A DNA stretch of 10,260 bases from a virus (Duplodnaviria; Heunggongvirae; Uroviricota; Caudoviricetes): the IMG/VR virus record IMGVR_UViG_2737471864_000005; one strand, written 5' to 3'. Position numbers and translations under genes: made by a program. The notes beneath the pieces are model-generated. The model saw only the letters and a program-made list of their open reading frames with translations. It did not search any database and had not been told where the DNA came from. Below, one piece after another: positions 1 to 10,260 of the stretch (positions within the stretch are counted from its first letter, which is position 1; every line of letters begins with the position of its first letter).

Positions 1-30
1 TAAGTTGGAGTCATTACCCTCAAAATTTAA

Positions 31-71
31 AAATAAATAAAAAAAGGCGAAGCGTGAATACACGCCACGCC
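31..71 (-). terminator. Putative intrinsic terminator after the capsid gene
   Basis: Hairpin 46-71 (GGCG/CGCC and GCGTG/CACGC stems, AATA loop) followed on the minus strand by a T-run (complement of A-rich 31-45), 18 nt after the capsid stop. Confidence 0.55.
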
Positions 72-89
72 TCTATTACACGTTAAATA

Positions 90-1118
90 TTATTTAACAG
101 TGATTTGAACGGAGAAGCCAACGCCGTGGTTTACAACCATCTGGCTATTCTCTGTAACAACGTTAACAGCATCCCCGCGAGCAGACTCGTAACTGTAGCT
201 ATACACCTCAGCAGGAGCGGCATTAATCAGTTCAAAGGTGCTGGAAGCAGCCCCGTAGATGTTCTGATATACGTTAGAGCCTTTAGCAAACTTCGGAACA
301 GCTACAGCGTCTGCGGTCATATGTGCAAGGTGTAGCGGATCAGTCACTTTGATCAGGTCAATGTTAGTTCCTGGAATGGTGAAAGTAGTTACACCTGGTA
401 GCAGGGAACGCACATTAAACACCACGTTGGCATCGTCTACAGGGCTTGCATATTGGAAAGCATTGACCATACCAACACTGTAACGAATAGCGTTGAATGC
501 CGCAGGCTTACAGAATACTACGATACGCTCTACAGCAGCCGCCTGGCTTTGTGCTTTCTCCATAATATCCGTAGCAAGCTGGTCAAATTGCTTGAAAACG
601 GTCATTGTGTCAGTGGCGGAGGCGTTCACAGTGGCTTTCATAGGTGTCACATTAAACAGCTTGCCCCATTCGATAAGAACATCATCAGTTTTAGGCGTGT
701 AAGTTTTACCGCTAAACAGAGATGCAGCCAACACGCTCTCTTTTGTACGCTGATACGCTACGTGGTGTTTAGCGATATATTCCGCATAGATATCAGTGAG
801 TGTTTCCTGAAAATCAGTGCCAGGTTTACGTTTGCCTTGAACATCAGAAGGTCTAATCACATCTTCACGAAGAAAATACGGGATTTCAATCAGCCATTCT
901 TTACCTTGTTCTCGCTTAGTAACATTGTGTTCAGAACTAAAACGGCTTGTCTCTTTGTTAAAGAGAGATTCGTTGCTTTCGACAAGCTGTGAAACAGCTA
1001 CTTTGTGAGATGTAACCCCTACAGAATCCGTAAAATCAAGAGTAGAAAGCAGATAGTTTCTAGTGCTATGCGCAGAGAACAGAGGAGCTAAATCAACGTA
1101 ATCATTACCTAGAATCAT
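90..1118 (-). CDS. Major capsid protein, lambda gpE-like family
   Basis: 342-aa ORF, close to lambda gpE length. By-eye matches to remembered lambda gpE: FTDSVGVTSHKVAVSQL vs FRESYPFTTEKVYLSQI, SGKTYT vs KGKYTM, C-terminal GFSVQIT vs FVSVQLA. AAGGA SD 10 nt upstream of ATG; 18-nt gap to upstream gene. Confidence 0.8.
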   Translation of the reverse strand: MILGNDYVDLAPLFSAHSTRNYLLSTLDFTDSVGVTSHKVAVSQLVESNESLFNKETSRFSSEHNVTKREQGKEWLIEIPYFLREDVIRPSDVQGKRKPGTDFQETLTDIYAEYIAKHHVAYQRTKESVLAASLFSGKTYTPKTDDVLIEWGKLFNVTPMKATVNASATDTMTVFKQFDQLATDIMEKAQSQAAAVERIVVFCKPAAFNAIRYSVGMVNAFQYASPVDDANVVFNVRSLLPGVTTFTIPGTNIDLIKVTDPLHLAHMTADAVAVPKFAKGSNVYQNIYGAASSTFELINAAPAEVYSYSYESARGDAVNVVTENSQMVVNHGVGFSVQITVK

Positions 1119-1136
1119 TTATTATTATTCCTTTTA

Positions 1137-1499
1137 TTAAGAAGTGAAAACAGAATGGAACCCTTCAAGCTGGAAGCCTTTTTTAATTAATGCTGTTTTT
1201 GCTGCTTCACTTACAGCATTCAGCGCATCAGCTTTGATGCAGACAAGGCCAGCATTGCTACGTAGCACATCTACAGGCTTGTTTTCTCCAGCCGTTACAA
1301 ATTCACTCATAACAACATAGATATCATCTCCTGATTCATATTTAGCGCCAGTGCTGGTGATCAAGTCGCCGCACTCAACATCAGCAGGAAGAGAAGCAAA
1401 AACCTTGCTTTCTACAGAGGCAAACGGATCAGTACAATAAGCCACCAGATCTGTAAAAGTCTTTCGACTTGGAAATAGAGCGTCTAAATCAATAATCAT
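1137..1499 (-). CDS. Putative head decoration protein (gpD-like by size and position)
   Basis: 120-aa ORF immediately upstream of the gpE-like gene, as D precedes E in lambda; strong AAGGAG SD. Sequence similarity to lambda gpD is weak by eye, so the function rests mainly on synteny and size. Confidence 0.5.
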   Translation of the reverse strand: MIIDLDALFPSRKTFTDLVAYCTDPFASVESKVFASLPADVECGDLITSTGAKYESGDDIYVVMSEFVTAGENKPVDVLRSNAGLVCIKADALNAVSEAAKTALIKKGFQLEGFHSVFTS

Positions 1500-1708
1500 T
1501 TAGTAATCTCCTTAGCTTTTAATTTGATTAATTCATTAAGGGAAGGTGTAGACGGAGAAGAAGGAGAAAAATATTTTTCAACACATCTTTCTACTTCCTC
1601 TACAGAACACCCAGCGTATTTAGCTACCATTTCGGTAATTTGTGGATTGATCTTTAGCATTTCATCGCGATACTTGATGATTTGCTCTTTATCATTTAAG
1701 AACAACAT
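1496..1708 (-). CDS. Hypothetical 70-aa protein, first gene of the capsid operon
   Basis: ORF whose TGA stop overlaps the ATG of the downstream gene (ATGA overlap at 1496-1499), suggesting translational coupling. No recognisable motif. Confidence 0.45.
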   Translation of the reverse strand: MLFLNDKEQIIKYRDEMLKINPQITEMVAKYAGCSVEEVERCVEKYFSPSSPSTPSLNELIKLKAKEITK

Positions 1709-1830
1709 TTATATAAACCTTGTTACCTTGTTTAAAGTAAGAAATACAACTTTTAAGTTGCATAACGGGCAAAATAAAAGGCAGCATTTAAAGCCGCCTT
1801 TTATTAACTTGTACCTATGTAATTACCCTA

Positions 1831-1862
1831 TGTTATGCATACTCCAAGATGTATGCATAACA
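1831..1862. promoter_or_regulatory. Perfect 12-bp inverted repeat, candidate operator upstream of the capsid operon
   Basis: TGTTATGCATAC (1831-1842), 8-nt spacer, GTATGCATAACA (1851-1862), exact reverse complements, about 130 bp upstream of the operon start codon at 1708. Confidence 0.5.
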
Positions 1863-1882
1863 AAGGAAAAAAGAGGTATAAT
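1854..1882 (+). promoter_or_regulatory. Possible plus-strand sigma70-like promoter overlapping the palindrome
   Basis: Exact TATAAT at 1877-1882 with a weak -35-like TGCATA about 17 bp upstream; would drive a short transcript toward the weak hairpin plus T-tract at 2041-2062. Confidence 0.25.
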
Positions 1883-2060
1883 GACACAGTATTTACTTAA
1901 GGAGGAGGAGAAGCGGGGAGCGGAGATTTTACTCCCCTTTAACGACAAGAAGAATTTTTAATATCGAACCAATAAAGGAAAAATAATCACCCCTATATAA
2001 TTATATTAACATACAATATATGAAATGCCAAGATATTTTACAACTTTTTTGTTGCTTTTT

Positions 2061-2399
2061 TTATTCTTCTGTGATAGCAGCGCCTAAGCGTTGTGCGAGT
2101 TCGATAAGGCCATCTCCCACATAGCGAACATCAGATTCAATATCTTCTATCCAGTTTGATAGCTCCCATATCTGATCCGCTGTTAGATATGCGTTCTCAC
2201 GCTTACAGAGCATCTCTACACGCTTAGAGAGGTGCTCAAAGGCATTCACAGCTAAATCCCAGTGTTTAAACGCCTCATTGAGTGCCGCTGGCGTGTTTTC
2301 TCTGTATGCTTCAAGTTCAGCGCGGTTTAAAGGCAGGAGGTAATCATCCTCATAATAATTAATTAGTGAGTAAATTGTGTCATACGTGTTTTTGTTCAT
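2061..2399 (-). CDS. Hypothetical acidic protein (112 aa from preferred start)
   Basis: ORF track gives 2061..2426; I prefer the ATG at 2399, which has a GGAG SD 9 nt upstream and sits just after the upstream gene stop (2401-2403). No recognisable domain. Confidence 0.5.
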   Translation of the reverse strand: MNKNTYDTIYSLINYYEDDYLLPLNRAELEAYRENTPAALNEAFKHWDLAVNAFEHLSKRVEMLCKRENAYLTADQIWELSNWIEDIESDVRYVGDGLIELAQRLGAAITEE

Positions 2400-2400
2400 A

Positions 2401-2811
2401 TTAAAAGTCTCCATAGTGATCAGCATTCTCTAAAATCTGGAAGTCTGGGACTAAGTTATTTAGGCCATTGGTGGCGAGATAACCGACGTAGTGGTTATAG
2501 TCTTCAAATCCTAAAATCTGGTATTTGCGCAAATCAGAGCTATCAACGATATACTCTTTTCTTTTTCTAGGTTTCCAGAATACGCCAGGTGTTGAAGATA
2601 AGATTTCTTGTAATGCGTTAAATTCATCTCCGCAAGGCACAGAGGGAGAATGTTCTATGATCTCTGTTTTCCATTCGCCAGGGGCGCTATTTTGCTTGGA
2701 GAGCGTAACTAGCTCTTTAAAGTCTTTACGTCTTAGAATAGATTTAGGTTTACTTAGAAGAGAAGCTGAATCACCGATTTTCTTAACAACGTTGTTTTTT
2801 CTTTTTGCCAT
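2401..2811 (-). CDS. Hypothetical protein with basic N-terminus (136 aa)
   Basis: ORF with AAGGA SD upstream; lysine/arginine-rich N-terminus (MAKRKNNVVKK). No recognisable domain. Confidence 0.55.
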   Translation of the reverse strand: MAKRKNNVVKKIGDSASLLSKPKSILRRKDFKELVTLSKQNSAPGEWKTEIIEHSPSVPCGDEFNALQEILSSTPGVFWKPRKRKEYIVDSSDLRKYQILGFEDYNHYVGYLATNGLNNLVPDFQILENADHYGDF

Positions 2812-2902
2812 TATTTACTTTTCCTTTTCTTTTAAAGGAAAACACCCCGAAGTATGTTTCTACGAGCATAAAAAACAACAACCACCACATAGCTATTACC
2901 AT
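2783..2902 (-). CDS. Candidate small hydrophobic peptide (39 aa), low confidence
   Basis: Hand translation of the 132-bp gap between the 92-aa and 136-aa genes: MVIAMWWLLFFMLVETYFGVFSFKRKGKVNNGKKKKQRC, hydrophobic N-terminus with basic tail, AAGGA 10 nt upstream. Overlaps the start of the 136-aa gene out of frame; could be a chance ORF in AT-rich DNA. Confidence 0.2.
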   Translation of the reverse strand: MVIAMWWLLFFMLVETYFGVFSFKRKGKVNNGKKKKQRC

Positions 2903-2943
2903 AATAATGTTTTCCTTTTATATTTTAATTACATAGAGAGATT

Positions 2944-3222
2944 TTAGAGAGTGGAATAGATGAAGTCTATTTCTCTGTCTAGTCTTTTGAGATTGAATGT
3001 AGAGAAAGATAATTCTTTAATCTCAATAACACCGAAGTTTGATAGCTGTTTCAGCCAGAATTTTAAACCATCTTCAGAGCACCCTGCTCGGTGTAACACA
3101 TCGCTATATTTTAGCGGTGTTGGCTTTCCTTTATAGAGGTAAGCAAGTGTTTCGTAGATGCGTTTTCCTGTGTCATTACACTGAATTCTGTCTACTTGAT
3201 TTTTTACTAAATATTGAATCAT
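2944..3222 (-). CDS. Hypothetical small protein, possibly DNA-binding (92 aa)
   Basis: ORF with strong AAGGAGG SD; 11-nt gap after the upstream gene. Possible helix-turn-helix-like segment, not verifiable by eye. Confidence 0.5.
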   Translation of the reverse strand: MIQYLVKNQVDRIQCNDTGKRIYETLAYLYKGKPTPLKYSDVLHRAGCSEDGLKFWLKQLSNFGVIEIKELSFSTFNLKRLDREIDFIYSTL

Positions 3223-3233
3223 AACCCTCCTTA

Positions 3234-3905
3234 TTAAAATGGAATATCAAAGTCTTCATATACTTTGGGATGTTTCTTAGCAAAATATGCCTCAATACCA
3301 TTTGGTAGCTTTAACCTGTGCTTATAGGCTAACGATGTTGCAAATTCTATAAATGATGCTCCTCCTGTTCTTTTGTGTTTCTCCTGGATGATAAGAGAGG
3401 AAAAATTCTCTAACACATCCTCCTCATTATCATTAGCTACCTTTTCACTTGATGAAACAGGTGTTTCTTCCGTCTCCCAGGGTAAAGGCGTATCCCAATC
3501 ATCATCAAGAACATCAAAAGAAGGCTGTTTATTATCTTCCGTAGGGGGAAGCTGATCAGGAACAGTTTTAACAGTAGCTTCTTGTTGTGTCTGGGCTTCT
3601 TGTTCATAAGGAAGGACAATATAAGCATTTGTGCTACCTGCCCTTTCCTCAATCTTCAACCATCCAAAAGAAACAAGATCTTTGATATGACGGCGTACCG
3701 TCTGATCTGTACCTACTCCTAACCGCTCACCAATACCTTTCAAAGATGGTGTTACCTTTTGGTATGTGCCAGATAAACTTAACAAATAAGAATAAATGAT
3801 CTTATGGTGTAGTTTTACTTCTTTTGTTTTGCCGTTAATCACCAGGGAAGTGATTGCTAGTAAGTCATAATCTATTCCTAAAAAAGGTTTTGTATGTTTA
3901 ATCAT
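3234..3905 (-). CDS. Winged-HTH DNA-binding protein with acidic linker; possible replication initiator or replisome organiser
   Basis: 223-aa ORF with AAGGAG SD. N-terminal region (KIIYSYLLSLSGTYQKVTPSLKGIGERLGVGTDQTVRRHIKDLVSFGWLKIEE) resembles wHTH domains of phage O / DnaD-type initiators; central acidic tract (DDDWDTPLPWETEE). Function is an architectural inference. Confidence 0.55.
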   Translation of the reverse strand: MIKHTKPFLGIDYDLLAITSLVINGKTKEVKLHHKIIYSYLLSLSGTYQKVTPSLKGIGERLGVGTDQTVRRHIKDLVSFGWLKIEERAGSTNAYIVLPYEQEAQTQQEATVKTVPDQLPPTEDNKQPSFDVLDDDWDTPLPWETEETPVSSSEKVANDNEEDVLENFSSLIIQEKHKRTGGASFIEFATSLAYKHRLKLPNGIEAYFAKKHPKVYEDFDIPF

Positions 3906-3959
3906 TAAAAAAGCTCCTTGATGTAATCACGCTCTACGGCGCTACTATGGTGATAAAAA

Positions 3960-4130
3960 TCACTTGCTTTTATTTGAGAGTGTTTCAGCCTCTCTTTTCA
4001 ACATATCAAGAATGTAATCTGTGACAGTGATACGTCTACTTCTGGCTTCTTTAAATAACACCTGAAATACTTCATCAGGAATATGAAAGCAAGTGCGTGG
4101 TTGTCTTTTCTTTTCTGTAGTTTCGCTCAT
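3960..4130 (-). CDS. Ribbon-helix-helix (CopG/Arc-type) DNA-binding protein (56 aa from preferred start)
   Basis: ORF track gives 3960..4175; the in-frame ATG at 4130 has a strong AAGGAG SD 6 nt upstream and avoids overlap with the upstream gene. PRTCFHIPDEVFQVLFKEARSRRITVTDYILDMLKRE fits a beta-strand plus two-helix RHH pattern. Confidence 0.55.
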   Translation of the reverse strand: MSETTEKKRQPRTCFHIPDEVFQVLFKEARSRRITVTDYILDMLKREAETLSNKSK

Positions 4131-4149
4131 AGTTTTCTCCTTCTTTTCT

Positions 4150-4338
4150 TTACTCTGTTTCAGATTCTTTTTCATTTTTTCTTAGTTCATCAATAATCTT
4201 GAGTGCTTCATTGAAGCAAGCTGCTCGCTCTGGATAACCTCGACTCCTTGCCATATTACGATTCATTACTACTTGATGGCGAGATAACTCACCTTTTTTA
4301 AATGCCGAGACGACGTGTTCCGGTGTAAACCATTTCAT
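4150..4338 (-). CDS. Hypothetical 62-aa protein, first gene of the regulatory operon
   Basis: ORF with AAGGAG SD 6 nt upstream, directly downstream of the predicted promoter and leader hairpin. Confidence 0.5.
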   Translation of the reverse strand: MKWFTPEHVVSAFKKGELSRHQVVMNRNMARSRGYPERAACFNEALKIIDELRKNEKESETE

Positions 4339-4355
4339 AAAAAACTCCTTATTCA

Positions 4356-4394
4356 GTTAAAAGAAAAAACACCTTGCAAGCCTGACGGCTTCAA
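4356..4394 (-). terminator. Leader hairpin plus U-tract, possible attenuator
   Basis: Stem AAGCC/GGCTT with TGAC loop (4378-4391), extended by TTG/CAA with a 1-nt bulge; on the minus strand followed by GGTGTTTTTTCTTTT. Lies between the predicted promoter and the first RBS. Confidence 0.4.
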
Positions 4395-4444
4395 AGTGCA
4401 TTGATTTTGATTATTTAGAGAAGAATGTTTTCTGTCCCTCTAAT

Positions 4445-4477
4445 ACCTATTATTACATATAAAGAAACATTTGTCAA
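4445..4477 (-). promoter_or_regulatory. Putative sigma70 promoter for the 4338-to-2061 operon
   Basis: Minus strand reads TTGACA (plus 4472-4477), 17-nt spacer, AATAAT; about 100 nt upstream of the first start codon. Confidence 0.4.
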
Positions 4478-5009
4478 TACCTTTTCACAAAAAATCTGAT
4501 CTTTTTCATGCACTTACATTTTTTCTTAGCTATTCGTGCTCTTCTGTGTAGTGCTATTCTTCATTATCCGCTAAAACGCTCTAAAACGCGTTCTAACGAG
4601 ATTTTGATAAAAGCAATACATTCCCTTATGTAATGGCTGTTTAGCTCGCCAGAGGCTTATTTAAGGGGCTTATTTTGTATTTGTTAGGTATATGAAAAGG
4701 TGATTGTAGATATAAGATAGAGAGTCACTTTATAAAACGCTCTGTAAAGCCCTGTAGTGAGTTTATATATGTAGACAATGCGTTTCCATTCCCTACCCTG
4801 CTTAATGCTGTTAGAGAAGCATTTAGACCCCTTATTTTTAATTAATTAAAGTATCCTCTATACACTCCTGTTATGAAACACCTCTGAATCCTTCATAAAA
4901 CACATTATGACGCAAAGAACACTTTTCTAAGGTGATTCCCTTCCTGAATGCTGTTTCTTGCGTCAGAGAGCTACAGAGAGCTTATAAAGCTATTATTAAT
5001 AATAAAGTA

Positions 5010-5062
5010 GATAAGTAAGATAAGTAAGTAAGATAACTAAGATAGATAAGATTAATAAGATC
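5010..5062. repeat. Tandem degenerate 9-mer array (GATAAGTAA-like, 5 units)
   Basis: GATAAGTAA, GATAAGTAA, (GTAA), GATAACTAA, GATAGATAA, GATTAATAA, GATC read directly from the sequence. Confidence 0.6.
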
Positions 5063-5105
5063 AGAATTCTCTTTCGGTGTCGCCTCTGGCTTTTCCACCG
5101 AAAAC

Positions 5106-5260
5106 AATTACACGACTACAGAATGTAGAAGTGGAATTGTATTGAGGCTTAGTGAAATTACACGAGGAAAGCAGAGTGTAATTGAGCTTTAGCCACTCTC
5201 TCTTCGAGTAATTACACAACTACAGAGAATAACAGAGTTATTAAGTGTAGGAGGGTAATT
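5106..5260. repeat. Cluster of AATTACAC motifs with nested short inverted repeats
   Basis: AATTACAC at about 5106, 5157 and 5210; AATTACAC-N12-GTGTAATT inverted pair (5157-5183); CTACA-N-TGTAG dyads at 5115-5127 and 5219-5250; AATAAC-AGA-GTTATT at 5228-5242. Confidence 0.55.
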
Positions 5261-5323
5261 AAGAGGTAGAGAGATAGAGTTAACACGTAAGCAATCTGTA
5301 GATTGGTTAGGTGATTACTCTTA

Positions 5324-5495
5324 CTGCGCACAGCGCAATAGTATTTCTTCGTGGGCGTTATCGCCAACGAAGTTACACGAAGAAAGTAACGCTTTGCTTT
5401 CGGTGTGAGCGGAACGGGCCAGCCAACGTAGCCCGAAAGGTAGCGGAGTAAGGCTGCTTGCCAGAGAGTGAAGCTAACGCCGGAAGGCAAAAAGA
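5324..5495. other. GC-rich island of consecutive stem-loops (candidate structured RNA or DNA site)
   Basis: TGCGC-ACA-GCGCA (5325-5337); CTTCGT-G-GGCG-TTAT-CGCC-A-ACGAAG (5347-5372); GTTAC-N9-GTAAC (5372-5390); CGGGC-N11-GCCCG (about 5414-5434). Markedly more GC-rich than its flanks. The only ORF here (5212..5499 minus) is low-complexity and likely spurious. Confidence 0.35.
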
Positions 5496-5498
5496 TCA

Positions 5499-5675
5499 TA
5501 TATATATAGATATAAAGAATATTATTTAATTATTATTTAATTATTCTTATTAACTTATTCTTATCGGGTATCAGTTTTGATAGGGGTAGGGGTATCAGAC
5601 TTGATAGGGGTAGTCATATCAAAGTTAATAGGGGTATCAATATTGATAGGGGTAACAGAATTCTGTGGGGGTAGC
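5499..5675. promoter_or_regulatory. Candidate replication origin: AT-rich unwinding tract plus five palindromic iterons
   Basis: Near-pure AT tract 5499-5562, then TGATAGGGGTA-type units starting at about 5578, 5602, 5626, 5644 and 5664 (spacing 24, 24, 18, 20 bp). Units form TGATA-GGGG-TATCA dyads, consistent with a dimeric binding protein. Confidence 0.5.
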
Positions 5676-5716
5676 TCACAGTGACCTACCGTTACTACCA
5701 ATCATCACATAGCACT

Positions 5717-6200
5717 CTGTGTAATGTCTTTCTATGTGCGTGCCATAATCCCCCTATATTCCCTGTGTAAATCATAGAATAATGCTCTCTATTCCCTGTG
5801 TAATTCCATACTAAAAAATCCAATGAAAAGTAGCTTAAAAGTGCAATTCTTACTTTCTTCACTTTTACATCACTTTCGCAAATCCTTGTGTAGTGCGGCT
5901 TACAGAGCACCATCAGAAATTGTTGGCTAAAAATTGTTCTGCTTGTTTCTTAATGAGTTTTCTTGTTTGTGCAAATTTTAAAATTTATTTTGTTTTTATA
6001 GCCTTATTTCGTGTAATGCGTGGCATAGCAAGCCCTTTTCTTGTGTTGTCAAGACATTTGGCAACGTTCAAACATCTGTTTAGAAATGCCAAATTGTTGA
6101 TCTAACAAATAAACCTGTATAAACAGAACACCATTTAATCTATCCCCCTGTGTATCCATTAGGCATACCAAATGAATACATCTAAATCGTGTAATATTCC
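5717..6200. repeat. Dispersed GTGTAAT / CTGTGTAA motifs (reverse orientation of the 5106-5260 cluster)
   Basis: CTGTGTAAT-like motifs at about 5717, 5765, 5800, 5885, 6010, 6148 and 6188, including ATTCCCTGTGTAA twice (5758-5812). Confidence 0.5.
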
Positions 6201-6285
6201 GTACCTATAAGGCTTGAAACAGACCAAATGAATACGATATACTCATTTGCATTGAAGTAGTGCCAAATCGATACATTAAGAGGAT
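6160..6285. promoter_or_regulatory. Candidate res site (three resolvase-binding subsites) upstream of the recombinase
   Basis: ACCAAATGAATAC at 6167-6180 and 6223-6235; the latter pairs with ATACTCATTTG (6239-6249) as an imperfect dyad; third related copy CCAAATCGATAC at 6263-6274. Ends just before the recombinase start. Confidence 0.4.
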
Positions 6286-6288
6286 TTT

Positions 6289-6828
6289 ATGAGCAATATC
6301 GGTTATAAGCGTGTGAGCACTGTAGATCAGAACACTGATCGCCAGCTTGCAGGAGTAACGCTTGATAAAGTCTTTGAAGATAAGCTGTCAGGTAAAGACA
6401 CTAACCGTCCAGGATTGCAGGCGTGTTTATCCTATCTGAGAGAAGGCGACACCTTACACGTCCACTCTCTTGATCGTTTAGGGCGTAACACCTTAGACAT
6501 TCTGGAGTTAATCAAACAATTGAATGATCGAGGTGTAATTGTTCGCTTTCACAAAGAAGGAATCATTGCTGACATTACAAGCGCGATGGGAAAGATGATG
6601 CTTACGATGTTGTCGGCAGTTGCAACGTGTGAACGTGAACTGATGTTAGAGCGTAAACGAGAAGCGCAAGCCGTCAATCCTACAAAGCGTGGTAAAGGGA
6701 AGGCAGTAGATAGGGAAGGTATAAAGAAAGCCCTTTCCGCTGGAGTGTCAGTGCGTAAAACCGCCGAGAGCTTTAATGTTGCTCCTTCAACGGTGCAACG
6801 TATCAAGAAGGAAGAAGAGGAGGCGTAA
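6289..6828 (+). CDS. Small serine recombinase, resolvase/invertase family
   Basis: 179 aa. N-terminal GYKRVSTVDQ with catalytic-serine context, DRLGRN, GKMMLTMLSAVATCERELMLER helix, and C-terminal HTH-like tail resembling gamma-delta/Tn3 resolvase. GAGGA SD 4 nt upstream. Confidence 0.85.
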   Translation: MSNIGYKRVSTVDQNTDRQLAGVTLDKVFEDKLSGKDTNRPGLQACLSYLREGDTLHVHSLDRLGRNTLDILELIKQLNDRGVIVRFHKEGIIADITSAMGKMMLTMLSAVATCERELMLERKREAQAVNPTKRGKGKAVDREGIKKALSAGVSVRKTAESFNVAPSTVQRIKKEEEEA

Positions 6829-6836
6829 TGCCTCCT
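6818..6836 (+). terminator. Hairpin overlapping the recombinase stop codon
   Basis: AGGAGGC-GTAAT-GCCTCCT perfect 7-bp stem (6818-6836); downstream T-tract is weak, so terminator function is uncertain. A second hairpin TCTGGA-TTT-TCCAGA lies at 6851-6865. Confidence 0.3.
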
Positions 6837-7155
6837 TGATATTTGGGGATTCTGGATTTTCCAGATCGGGGGGCGCTGATCTTCGCGTTAAACATTGATC
6901 ACGTTTGCGCCGATTTCAGATAAAAAGGCAGCTATTAAGCAATACGTAACTTTTACAATTAGTGAAATTATCTAAAACACAAGTTATATAGATGAGAAAA
7001 TGAAATATTATCTTGAACAAATCAAACAAAACAACACATCATCTTGTTGACACCATGCAAAGTGAATAGTAAGCTATTATATGTGAAAATTTGCACATTG
7101 CATGCAATAAAAAATAAATGATACCTTGTTGTTGTTAAATCAATAGGGGGTATCT

Positions 7156-7314
7156 ATGCGCTTTATCTTATCCATTTTAAAAACCTGCAGAACCACAATT
7201 ACTTTAGCTGTAATTGTTACCATCATATACCTCATCTATTTTACCCCTCGAGATAAAATCGATTCACTAGCGATCATCGTTCATGCAATGGCTACATTAA
7301 CTAAAAAACTTTAA
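7156..7314 (+). CDS. Candidate small membrane peptide (52 aa)
   Basis: Hand translation: MRFILSILKTCRTTITLAVIVTIIYLIYFTPRDKIDSLAIIVHAMATLTKKL. AGGGGG SD 5 nt upstream of ATG. One predicted transmembrane helix. Not in the ORF track, presumably because it is under the length cutoff. Confidence 0.4.
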   Translation: MRFILSILKTCRTTITLAVIVTIIYLIYFTPRDKIDSLAIIVHAMATLTKKL

Positions 7315-7327
7315 TAATTTCACTATC

Positions 7328-7371
7328 AGGCGCACAAACACATCTTTGATTGCTGGATGTGTTATGCGCCT
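7328..7371. other. Long imperfect inverted repeat between two convergent small genes
   Basis: AGGCGCACAAACACATC (7328-7344), 11-nt loop, GATGTGTTATGCGCCT (7356-7371). No clear U-tract on either strand, so it may be a binding site or RNA structure rather than a canonical terminator. Confidence 0.4.
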
Positions 7372-7380
7372 ACTGGTGAT

Positions 7381-7533
7381 TCAATCCTTAAGCCATTTCA
7401 ACTCACTAAGGAGTTTTCTTTCTTCGTTCTCTCGCTGTTTACGCTCTAGCCAGGCTTTTCCCTCTGGCGTAGACAGGAACTTACGAGCGTGAATCTTGCG
7501 GTTATTACGTTTTATAGCTGCAATGTTTTTCAT
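7381..7533 (-). CDS. Candidate small basic protein (50 aa)
   Basis: Hand translation: MKNIAAIKRNNRKIHARKFLSTPEGKAWLERKQRENEERKLLSELKWLKD. AGAGG SD about 7 nt upstream. Highly basic, likely helical. Confidence 0.4.
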   Translation of the reverse strand: MKNIAAIKRNNRKIHARKFLSTPEGKAWLERKQRENEERKLLSELKWLKD

Positions 7534-8355
7534 CGTGTTGCCTCTGTATTCATATGAAAATTAACAAGTTACATACTACACAGGGAGACTACGCATAAAA
7601 CACAATACAAGTAAAGATACATTTTCAAGACAATAGGAGCCATAAAGCGCCTTTGATGGTTATACCAAAAAATAAGCGCCGTAGGCGTATCCACTAAAAG
7701 GGCTTTTTCACAAAAGCTATGAAGTCTTAGCAGTTCTTCTCTTATCAGGCACCCGTTGTACTCCGGTGGACGAAACCGTGCTAGAGCTTGATTCTTTCCC
7801 GATCAAGTTAGGTTTTGAAGAGGTGGGCTTTAATCCACTATTGCACTTAAAACTCTTCCCATCATTTAGCCTGTTTATCCTCTGCAACGTCTCACGACGT
7901 GTGGCATCATTGGACACCGCGCCAGGTGTGGAACATCTTGCTAAGAGTTTTGGTAGAAGGTTTAGAGACGGTGGCACGTCTTCCAGCTTCAAAGGAACTT
8001 GTTACGAGGTTGAGCCTGGGAACTACTCGCCCATACGTGTTACACTACCAAAGCCCATAACAACGTATAGGCGTTTGTAAGTGATAACAGAAGATACAAT
8101 TTCTTAGAGAAGTTAAGCTAAGTTATTGATTTTCTTAATGGTGCGATAATAGGAACAATACACATAGGCGATAAGCTTTGTTTTTGTTGCCTTTTTTATT
8201 GTTCATTTTTTATAGATACCCCCAAAAGTACCCCCATATCTTTTTCCGCCCCTGAAATTTGGTTGTTATTCATACAGCATATCAGGCGGTAACGCTCTCC
8301 CTTTAACCCACTTATTGTATGATAGTGCTATCCCACAATAAGGAATCAGCCAGCC

Positions 8356-8715
8356 ATGAGAATGACCAGTCGCAAAAAAGAGATACTTAGCTACTTTGAA
8401 CCGGATAACCTCGAATGGGTGACTGGTGAGATTGGTGCGCCGCCGTTCGATGTGTCGGGTGTGGCCTACCTGCTTCATGGCATGGTGTCGTTCGATAAGC
8501 GTCACCAGCTCGAATCAACCCGGCACACACTGGAAAGCATGGTTGCTGGTGGACTGCTTGAGCGGGTGACAGTGTATGAATCGCGCCAGATACGGCGCGG
8601 CGGTGATACTAACGCAACGGTCGTGCGCTACGGTTTACCCGGTCAGTGCGCTGTTATGCGCGATACTGGCGGCGCTGACAACGCAATATCAGGTGAATAC
8701 ATGCGGGTCAGTTAA
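8356..8715 (+). CDS. Hypothetical protein (119 aa), enterobacterial-type composition
   Basis: ORF with GC-rich codon usage unlike the AT-rich region to its left; weak AGGA SD. Its 3-prime end overlaps the convergent gene by 8 nt. No family recognised. Confidence 0.5.
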   Translation: MRMTSRKKEILSYFEPDNLEWVTGEIGAPPFDVSGVAYLLHGMVSFDKRHQLESTRHTLESMVAGGLLERVTVYESRQIRRGGDTNATVVRYGLPGQCAVMRDTGGADNAISGEYMRVS

Positions 8716-9250
8716 TAGCCTGCAATCTGTCGTTGATGCGGCTCAGGTCGTAAACCCGGCGTTCAATATCCAGCATCAGGAAATTGTGGATCTCGGCCTG
8801 CTCAGGATTATCAGACTCTCTGGCCTGTAATAGCAATTCATTGTAACCATGCAAGCCGCCTGAGTTTTCCGCCGGGGTGGTGCCTTTCCCACGCAGGCAG
8901 CTAATGGGCTGATTACTCGTATCGTGTGTTTGCTTCTCCAGCACAATGACGCAATCCCACCAGTCGCCAAAGTCATACGTGTAAACCAGCTTGTCACCCT
9001 CATTCTGGAGCGCCGCCCATAGTGGCGTGATTGCCGCGTTACCCATGCTTTCATCCTCACCCCATACGCGATACTCGCTACCTGGATCACCTTTACGCCC
9101 TTTCTCGAACATATACAGGTGTTCGTCATTCCAGCCAAAAGCTAACTGGATCACGGCATGAAGTTTACTAAAGGGGATTTGCTCTGGAACCAGCACACGC
9201 CGCCATATAGGTGGTTTGCTGTCTCGGATGGTTATCTTTAGCTGGTACAT
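8708..9250 (-). CDS. pRiA4b ORF-3-like family protein
   Basis: 180 aa. N-terminal MYQLKITIRDSKPPIWRRVLVP and FGW...YDFGDWW motifs match my memory of the plasmid pRiA4b ORF-3 domain family; assignment is by recall only. Confidence 0.65.
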   Translation of the reverse strand: MYQLKITIRDSKPPIWRRVLVPEQIPFSKLHAVIQLAFGWNDEHLYMFEKGRKGDPGSEYRVWGEDESMGNAAITPLWAALQNEGDKLVYTYDFGDWWDCVIVLEKQTHDTSNQPISCLRGKGTTPAENSGGLHGYNELLLQARESDNPEQAEIHNFLMLDIERRVYDLSRINDRLQAIN

Positions 9251-9370
9251 GCAAATCCTGAATAAATGCGAATCGGAAGGATAACGATACTGACGTACTC
9301 ACAATTCTGTAAAGGTGAATAAAGGAAATTTGCTTAATACGCATAAGTTACATGTGGAATAATCCCATAT

Positions 9371-9556
9371 CTACCTGCGCGGCGCTGGCTTCTTCCACTG
9401 GTAGGCAGGTGCTCGCATCATTTCGCGGAACCTGTCGCGCCGGGCTATATCGGCATTAACTGATCGTTCTATCTCCCGTTGATCTGCCTGTGTAAGCTGG
9501 TGGCCTCCGTGCTCAAGTTTGGCGATGGTCAATAAGGCTATTTCGCGTGGTATCAT
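9371..9556 (-). CDS. Hypothetical small protein (61 aa)
   Basis: ORF with GAGGG SD about 8 nt upstream; charged helical protein, no family recognised. Confidence 0.4.
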   Translation of the reverse strand: MIPREIALLTIAKLEHGGHQLTQADQREIERSVNADIARRDRFREMMRAPAYQWKKPAPRR

Positions 9557-9740
9557 ACGTCATACCCTCTGGAAGGATGAAACACGCCCGGATTAAATTT
9601 CATTTTTCGCGGGTATAAAAAAACGATGGGGCGGGCAGTCCCGGATAGTCAGGGCTGTAGAGATTTGACTACCCCCTCCCCACTGGATTCAGGTTACTGC
9701 TATTCCGTTAAGCGCTGCTTACGGGGATAGCTGCGTTGTG

Positions 9741-9766
9741 ATTTTGACCATTCAGGTCGCCGCTAT
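9741..9766 (-). other. Lambda cosN-like decamer within a repeat-containing non-coding gap
   Basis: Plus 9754-9763 AGGTCGCCGC is the reverse complement of GCGGCGACCT, matching 10 of 12 nt of the lambda cohesive-end sequence GGGCGGCGACCT. Nearby direct repeats of ATTCAGGT and GATTT(T)GAC. Could be chance. Confidence 0.2.
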
Positions 9767-9853
9767 TTCCTCACCGATTGGGTGCTACGCGCGCGCGTAC
9801 TTGTCCCGAAATACCAGAAACCGCCAGCCAGAGGATGATTTCCCTCTGGTGGT

Positions 9854-10135
9854 CTACCTTTGCCTCTTGCCGCCATTTAACCGGAAGGCGTTACCGTTCG
9901 GTTGCGCTATCCCCATGCGGTGTTGCGTTTCGGTAACAGCTTTATGCAGGTCGCCAAATTCCTCAACCTTCACGGGCGGGCGCTTCACGTTCTCCAGACA
10001 CGTTTCACGGCGGCGCTTTATCCATTCCCGATCATCGTCCTCAGTGCATAACAGCATGACTTCCATCCATCGTGCGGCAGCTCTCCGGTATAGCCCTTTT
10101 GACTCCAGCTCTTCAGCTTTCCTGTCCCTTATCAT
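9854..10135 (-). CDS. PerC-family transcriptional regulator-like protein
   Basis: 93 aa. N-terminal pattern AEELESKGLYRRAAARWMEVM...REWIKRRRETCL matches the conserved PerC/Pch N-terminal motif as I recall it. GAGAGG SD 5 nt upstream. Confidence 0.65.
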   Translation of the reverse strand: MIRDRKAEELESKGLYRRAAARWMEVMLLCTEDDDREWIKRRRETCLENVKRPPVKVEEFGDLHKAVTETQHRMGIAQPNGNAFRLNGGKRQR

Positions 10136-10171
10136 TTCTGCCTCTCAGATTATATAGATAAGCAAAAAGGT

Positions 10172-10250
10172 GTTGGTTCAGTTGGTTCAGTTGGTTCAAT
10201 TTGTAAAGATCGTTGTTTTTATTGTGTTTTTTCTGAAATGTTGAACCAAC
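10172..10250. repeat. Three perfect tandem 9-mers GTTGGTTCA plus one inverted copy
   Basis: GTTGGTTCA at 10172-10180, 10181-10189 and 10190-10198; reverse complement TGAACCAAC at 10242-10250. Located upstream of the perC-like gene. Confidence 0.6.
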
Positions 10251-10260
10251 ATCAACTCAT

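Follow-up and report, generated by a model that had tools for sequence, protein, structure and literature searches.

The replication origin of phage lambda, with its dyad iterons beside an AT-rich stretch, lies inside the gene of its initiator, and oriV of the IncQ plasmid RSF1010 brings together iterons, GC-rich and AT-rich stretches and two hairpin signals of ~40 nt, ssiA and ssiB, which are strand-specific, sit on opposite strands and are read by the plasmid primase RepB'. In E. coli oriC it is a short asymmetric sequence, the DnaA box, that switches orientation across the unwinding region. The window analysed here, i.e., the whole 10,260-nucleotide stretch of viral DNA whose positions are used throughout, has features reminiscent of each of these. 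An earlier note on this DNA had described an 8-mer, AATTACAC, recurring at least ten times and switching to GTGTAAT across a candidate origin, and had likened the array to the protein-bound sites of centromeres, origins or recombinases. Our analysis of the motif placed it largely in 1.95 kb (4339-6288) between a leftward operon and a recombinase gene, a region in which no RefSeq record annotates a coding sequence, and which belongs to an integrated, capsid-encoding, satellite-like element. The "array" would be two different things with a common core, GTGYAAT/ATTRCAC. The copies to the left of the origin (5106-5260, and one at 5373) would be arms of three tandem hairpins and of a three-way junction, acting via folding, and those to its right (5719-6195) would be polar, strand-specific signals for a putative reader, the two sets flanking an iteron origin of the lambda O type. 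This composite is the explanation that we favour, and we give it about an even chance of being correct.

Enrichment and polarity of the motif

Exact copies of the 8-mer number six in the window, as against 0.38 +/- 0.64 in dinucleotide shuffles, none of 200 of which reached six. The count of at least ten given previously did not hold for the exact 8-mer, and is attained only if one-mismatch variants or the hexamer GTG[CT]AA (12 copies in 4339-6288) are admitted. The 7-mer GTGTAAT occurs 11 times where 1.51 copies are expected, again a number reached in 0 of 200 shuffles, and nine of the 11 copies are clustered within 5107-6539. As the motif had been chosen post hoc, it was also compared with the commonest 7-mer of any kind in shuffled sequence: 5061-6288 contains eight copies of GTGTAAT, and the commonest 7-mer in 300 shuffles averaged 3.9 copies and never exceeded seven. 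Enrichment over shuffled sequence, the check that the earlier note had proposed, was thus borne out for the 8-mer and the 7-mer alike.

The switch in orientation was also as claimed. Scored in the GTGTAAT orientation, the exact copies left of the origin read -, -, + and -, i.e., they are mostly AATTACAC, and every exact copy to its right reads + (Table 1), as does a further one at 6533 within the recombinase gene. The polarity flips across the AT-rich stretch and the iterons that make up the candidate origin, and base composition does not explain the bias, since it opposes the local GC skew. In the window's own lineage in E. coli, 11 of the relatives examined retain all four left copies, and another, locus L009 (Escherichia sp. 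E1V33), which has a deletion in the left array, retains one. The positions of the motif are therefore kept in this lineage, but its flanks are conserved just as well, and no footprint contrast between motif and flank was to be seen because all of the gene-free 4339-5540 has ~98-100% invariant columns (vs. ~92% in the coding sequence 19-3532).

More distant members of the family were informative about polarity. Because the box had been defined in E. coli, six members outside that species, namely five isolates of other genera and one metagenome contig, constituted an independent test; in these GTGYAA was present in 37 copies, where shuffles gave 15.4 +/- 3.7, and 30 of the copies pointed outward from the origin as opposed to 7 inward (p = 2e-4). 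When hexamers of every kind were scanned without bias in eight diverse members, those with the strongest polarity included GTGCAA (29 outward, 6 inward), TGTAAT (20:4) and GTGTAA (18:4), and a tally from that scan for the right side only, in the members outside E. coli, gave 20:3 outward. The coding operon, used as a control, had no GTGYAA bias (32:30) at ~1 copy per kb. A second E. coli lineage, whose sequence left of the iterons does not align with that of the window, has a one-base variant of the motif, TTGTGCAAT, that is on the - strand to the left and the + strand to the right.

The right-hand boxes are single, have no local partner, lie in DNA without excess structure and are all aimed outward from the origin. 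The outward copies yield an extended consensus, T(-6)..T(-2)-Y-GTGYAA-T, whose 5' flank is poor in G. The boxes are not sigma-70 promoters: a position weight table of 47 outward copies revealed neither an enrichment of T at the -7 position nor a -35 or -10 partner, and only the copies at the two gene-proximal promoters fit. A polar DNA-binding factor is a possible reader of these boxes. Three of them fall in a block that is conserved in both E. coli lineages; an RNA stem considered there (5827-5876) was given no support by the substitutions in locus L006 and was dropped. The longest inverted repeat of the region joins 5153-5183 with 5778-5808 (31 nt, 71% complementary), and 19 of 23 positions of 5154-5176 and 5786-5808 would be able to pair in an RNA of one strand.

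The predicted folded domain left of the origin

Every left-hand copy of the motif is contained in a self-complementary non-coding domain (5061-5497) that abuts the AT-rich stretch. Relative to shuffles, folding of the domain as RNA gave z = -9.2 for the + and -6.9 for the - strand, and with DNA parameters the value was -7.7; the right-hand block gave only -1.6 and -1.0. This asymmetry held in eight of eight family members, with more structure in the 400 nt preceding the AT-rich stretch than in the 400 nt following the iterons. Three copies of AATTACAC each open a tandem unit of ~50 bp, and each unit is an imperfect palindrome that closes in GTGKAATT. The hairpins predicted from these units, H1 to H3, are described in Table 1; H3 has the additional complementary pairs CTACA/TGTAG and AATAAC/GTTATT. 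The 3' strand of the three-way junction farther along the domain bears a TTACAC copy at 5373.

It was the comparison with relatives that suggested how the left-hand copies should be viewed. The outer frame of H2, GGCTTAGTGA..GAGCTTTAGCC, is conserved in nine relatives, and its inner helix is swapped for at least four other complementary pairs (ACTTGCAC/GTGTAAGT, ACCGT/ACGGT or ACTGG/CCAGT among them), with loops of 3-12 nt. In other genera the three-way junction takes the form TTGTGCM-hairpin-hairpin-KGCACAA and lies within the GC-rich island, whose structure was analysed via manual helix tables and a covariance model. The modelled junction was recovered in nine relatives with 93.9% of cells paired and two-sided changes in 6 of 15 pairs, an alignment that leans towards the structure because it was fitted to the model, although the manual helix tables agree with it. 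Its covariation was 0.319, compared with 0.106 in shuffles (0/500), and dropped to <=0.07 when the pairing partners were slid. Viewed as a generic folded nucleic-acid element, therefore, the domain displays both folding beyond shuffles and compensatory changes, the latter in H2 and in the junction. Since complementary sequences unrelated to the box take its place at both sites, it is base pairing and not the 8-mer that the relatives conserve, and only this E. coli lineage has the three identical 8-mers. For this reason we infer that the left part works through single-strand folding, whether of a transcript or of a DNA strand exposed when the origin opens, and that the domain could be an origin-accessory or regulatory module. 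A bolder version, in which 5061-5497 would encode a new structured non-coding RNA of ~440 nt, Enterobacteriaceae-wide, strikes us as rather doubtful. In it the AUURCAC segments and the GUGYAAU boxes farther along that strand, such as 5154-5176 and 5786-5808, would enter into pairings, alternative or intermolecular, by which origin firing or immunity is controlled after the manner of P4 CI or P1 c4 RNA. Searches of Rfam 15 produced no match in 4339-6288 at E <= 1, and none at the gathering score in five relatives.

A number of observations weigh against an explanation by folding. Counts of G.U pairs do not differ by strand (74/1002 vs. 69/961) and so favour neither, and a scan for promoters and terminators returned nothing that supports a transcript of the domain, a weak terminator-like hairpin at 5325-5337 standing alone. 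The covariation comes from ~9-12 distinct sequences, partly on the model-fitted alignment, and several of the long "helices" were seen by eye to hold recurrent G.G mismatches. Palindromic protein sites would likewise give rise to conserved dyad symmetry. Pairing alone leaves unexplained the basal helix that is common to the three neighbouring hairpins, and it leaves the right-hand boxes unexplained as well. Finally, L009 has no equivalent of 5123-5209, apparently through recombination between 17-nt repeats, and a single hairpin unit remains in it; this natural loss indicates that the three hairpins are at least partly dispensable. Directly left of the domain, 5000-5059 is AT-rich and made up of tandem AAGATAAGTAAG-like repeats of 9-13 bp, in a run whose length varies among E. 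coli relatives.

The candidate origin and the element

An AT-rich stretch, iterons with dyad symmetry and an O-like replication initiator (Rep) together make a credible origin. The N-terminal part of Rep (3532-3895) is a swappable DNA-binding module: in E. coli elements that are otherwise 90-95% identical, it and the iterons (5544-5671) have been replaced jointly, and at least three iteron types exist in E. coli, with the same types recurring in other genera. Throughout these swaps the left array of AATTACAC and its positions are unchanged, from which it follows that Rep reads the iterons and not the motif. When assessed as accessory sites of the initiator the motif also failed, as it does not co-vary with the DNA-binding domain of Rep. 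The matched exchange of the Rep N-terminal part and the iterons spans a separation of 1.6 kb. A segment of the virulent phage muut (Justusliebigvirus; L027 4001-4426) is 96% DNA-identical to window 3537-3965, a match that extends over the rep N-terminal part and the sequence directly upstream of rep, as far as the 3' end of the small gene next to it, and that on the side of muut takes in part of muut_154, encoding a 332-aa hypothetical protein, and its neighbour. The segment may be a link to a helper, or a decoy gained by the phage. One member of the family (L042 3830-5278) has a 482-aa protein with a faint DEAD-helicase match in place of Rep.

Positions 13-8154 of the window form the right two-thirds of an island of ~12.4 kb and are 100% identical to the island of strain LZHX12, which adjoins tRNA-Thr; among 5426 complete genomes of E. 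coli, 799 (~15%) carry related sequence. Pfam and PHROG scans of the island identified a tyrosine integrase, a Dit-like protein, a 610-aa protein matching a tape-measure PHROG, a Phage_cap_E capsid, small proteins, a 223-aa HTH_36 Rep and a 179-aa serine recombinase. Via capsid homologues, relatives were reached in Klebsiella, Enterobacter, Citrobacter, Cronobacter, Dryocola, Sodalis and metagenomes, and those in other genera keep the gene order, with a gap of 1.3-2.7 kb. Three open reading frames in the gap of the window (5212-5499, 5695-5913 and 5893-6105) were dropped as coding sequences, as their indels among relatives are not multiples of three. In Klebsiella elements a Dam methylase gene is inserted within the gap (L029 4394-5083). 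The main leftward promoter has a -10 region that overlaps a one-mismatch copy of the motif, ATGTAAT, and the gene-proximal promoters share an extended -10 form, TGn-AAT, that resembles the box.

The nearest phage capsids, which are Pseudomonas Pakpunavirus-like, are ~24% identical, a distance so great that a helper phage could not be named. A literature search for the element family or a helper phage yielded nothing specific, the family being undescribed in the full texts searched, and a scan of IMG/VR for GCGTAGGTGAGATTTCCC gave zero matches. The remainder of the window (8155-10260) is a different island, of 50-58% GC, with a pRiA4b ORF-3 family protein and a PerC/ANR-like regulator; as there is no tRNA gene in the window, this copy of the element adjoins another island and not an intact tRNA.

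The relevance of the locus goes beyond the motif itself. The element family is common, in ~15% of complete E. coli genomes and in at least six other genera, and has its own capsid without a close phage homologue. Its gene-free core of 1.3-2.7 kb is the best-conserved part of the family and unites an exchangeable Rep/iteron cassette, a large covarying folded domain and a family-wide polar box, a combination that supplies concrete cis elements for the replication and control of the island. If the domain is an RNA, it would represent a new class of large structured RNA linked to a mobile element.

Table 1. Features of the island core and adjoining genes, in window positions
Feature	Position	Strand	Basis or description
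AATTACAC sites	5106, 5156, 5210	+	exact match
AATTACAC sites, top strand reading GTGTAATT	5176, 5798, 6533	-	exact match
Self-complementary non-coding domain, 437 nt, with long-range closing helix	5061..5497		folding z; homologous hairpins in other genera
Tandem imperfect palindromes	5106-5138, 5156-5183, 5210-5260		each closing in GTGKAATT
Hairpin H1	5104..5141		AATTACACGACTACA-GAA-TGTAGAAGTGGAATT; 8-mer copy at 5106-5113
Hairpin H2	5146..5194		frame GGCTTAGTGA..GAGCTTTAGCC; inner helix AATTACAC/GTGTAATT at 5156-5183
Hairpin H3	5196..5270		CTCTCTCTTC..GAGGTAGAGAG around TAATTACAC..GGGTAATTA; 8-mer copy at 5210-5217
Three-way junction	5344..5385		stem TTTCTTCGTG/CACGAAGAAA enclosing GGCG-TTAT-CGCC and AAC-GAA-GTT
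AT-rich stretch, candidate unwinding element	5497..5560		beside the iterons
Five iterons TAGGGGTATCAnnnTTGATAGGGGTA, Rep sites	5563..5672		internal dyad symmetry; exchangeable cassette
Right-hand boxes GTGTAAT	5719, 5798, 6011, 6189 (set spans 5719..6195)	+	exact
Right-hand variants	GTGTAAA 5765; GTGCAAT 5841; GTGTAGT 5888; GTGCAAA 5969	+	one-directional
Block conserved between two E. coli lineages	5790..5934		contains boxes 5798, 5841, 5888
Rep, replication initiator	3234..3905	-	Pfam HTH_36; PHROG replication initiation / O-like families
Main leftward promoter	4449..4477	-	TTGACA-17-(TGt)AATAAT, extended -10
Promoter-like site upstream of recombinase gene	6214..6243	+	among CCAAATGAATAC repeats
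Small serine recombinase (Resolvase + HTH_7)	6289..6828	+	nearest gamma-delta/Tn3 resolvase

Rival readings and known systems

The main rival to the composite is essentially the model of the earlier note, in which one protein reads GTGYAAT as an asymmetric duplex site, whether in a nucleoprotein complex or in the co-regulation of outward promoters. The protein might be a 56-aa ribbon-helix-helix-like protein or a 62-aa basic protein, encoded at the start of the leftward operon and both conserved across genera, or a factor of the host or a helper. Such a protein would suit a box that is enriched and polar in all genera, whatever the type of Rep or recombinase, and whose extended consensus is asymmetric; in several members the main leftward promoter has an exact or one-mismatch copy lying across its -10 region, and the right-hand copies in unstructured DNA and the shared basal helices would both be accommodated. 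However, H2 and the junction swap the box for unrelated complementary sequences with pairing retained, the spacing of paired copies (3 to ~35 nt) is unlike that of rigid-dimer sites, the right-hand copies are irregularly spaced at 33-178 bp, and the model names no binder. A single array of sites for a centromere protein, the initiator or the recombinase is further at odds with swaps of Rep and recombinase that leave the motif in place, and with left copies that are placed as hairpin arms. On balance, we regard the one-protein model as unlikely, while still the most serious contender. Lower again is our estimate for boxes that are strand-specific replication signals (for priming or a helicase) on the lagging-strand template, the left palindromes being single-strand initiation (ssi) hairpins. 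By geometry, the outward polarity does put 5'-GTGYAAT-3' on the strand that a 5'-3' helicase would follow on both sides, the hairpins fold well as DNA, and Pfam and PHROG scans of the element, which has a Rep, recognised no primase or helicase; but a 437-nt domain with a long-range closing helix far exceeds known ssi signals, and no primase is known to recognise the sequence of the box. This proposal we rate as improbable. That the copies are functionless relics of duplication, a ~50-bp unit repeated three times on the left with chance copies on the right, would sit well with left units that start 50 and 54 bp apart and can be aligned with each other, and with the confinement of the three identical 8-mers to this E. 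coli lineage. It is hard to reconcile with polarity and enrichment that recur in the unalignable second E. coli lineage and in other genera, or with a non-coding region more conserved than the genes, and is in our opinion very improbable.

The adjacent recombinase deserves separate mention, as sites acted on by recombinases had been among the likenesses suggested for the array; those of this enzyme would be either res-like or the inverted repeats of an invertible origin segment. The enzyme is indeed resolvase-like, the three dyads have variable spacing (33, 28 and 51 bp), as in res, and the inverted repeat 5153-5183/5778-5808 brackets the origin. But the origin lies between the left array and the gene, which are >1 kb apart, and a different repeat, CCAAATGAATAC, is found at the recombinase promoter. 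In all of the other-genus relatives a tyrosine recombinase of 185-291 aa (e.g., L029 2968-3585, L031 4166-4726) occupies the position of the serine enzyme, and there the boxes and hairpins persist; the replacement in place of one recombinase by a non-homologous one suggests a conserved role, such as multimer resolution. A chimeric query in which 5184-5777 had been inverted found the inverted arrangement in 0 of 688 E. coli genomes (>=80% coverage), and the ~25 retrieved loci were all collinear. With the change of recombinase class and no inversion, both a serine-resolvase res site and an invertible segment of the Hin/Gin or Fim type, present in one orientation only among the genomes, were rejected, and this reading, scarcely credible to us, is largely refuted already. 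The CCAAATGAATAC repeats are direct at 6167 and 6223 and inverted at 6238, with GTGCCAAAT at 6260, and are candidate recombinase sites or operators. Klebsiella relatives have five GTGCCAWWTTGACAC palindromes right of the iterons.

Other known readers of short sites were considered and set aside. A DnaA-box array (TTATNCACA) was dismissed because the only window site with <=1 mismatch is at 4229, outside the region, and the motif shares TGTGnA only. For a Tus/Ter fork trap (GTTGTAAC, core GNRNGTTGTAAYKA) the base before TGTAA is G and not T, and no GTTGTAA was found by eye. The centromere likeness foundered on Pfam and PHROG scans of the element proteins, which detected no ParA or ParB domain for a parS-type site, with a trans-acting factor being possible. 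A T7-like promoter for a phage RNA polymerase (AATTACACGACTACAGA) was rejected by eye, as the conserved CACTATAG part is absent, and the copies checked by eye gave no fit to the consensus sites of LexA, CRP, GalR, TyrR, IHF and OmpR. This locus has none of the features that define res, invertons, DnaA boxes, Ter, parS or any Rfam family.

Likenesses to described systems are nevertheless plentiful, and each comes with differences. In common with Tn3/gamma-delta res, there are three dyad subsites of differing internal spacing and a resolvase-like gene nearby, but the dyads of the element are not adjacent to that gene, do not co-vary with the recombinase, and have half-sites reversed relative to TGTCYNNTA. 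P4 CI RNA, P1 c4 RNA, ROOL and GOLLD resemble the left domain as heavily structured, non-coding regions of satellites or phages with short complementary boxes on one strand; the domain, unlike these, is without an Rfam match and has boxes that pair mutually within it instead of being left exposed. A short asymmetric box whose orientation switches across the unwinding region is shared with oriC, yet the box of the element matches <=6 of 9 DnaA-box positions and the region has no TTATCCACA with <=1 mismatch. As in IncQ oriV, iterons and GC-rich and AT-rich stretches occur with hairpins that could be strand-specific signals on opposite strands; the element differs in having a domain of 437 nt, no encoded primase, and boxes spread over >1 kb on both sides. 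From lambda it is distinguished by an origin 1.6 kb from the rep gene, by having no recognisable P-like loader, and by a large folded domain and polar boxes that lambda does not have, but it has in common with lambda a Rep that matches O-like PHROGs, five dyad iterons beside an AT-rich stretch, and an initiator specificity that co-varies with the iterons. The par locus of pSC101 is a further possible likeness, being a cis locus of a few hundred bp by an iteron origin, with three related direct and inverted segments and the potential to form hairpins.

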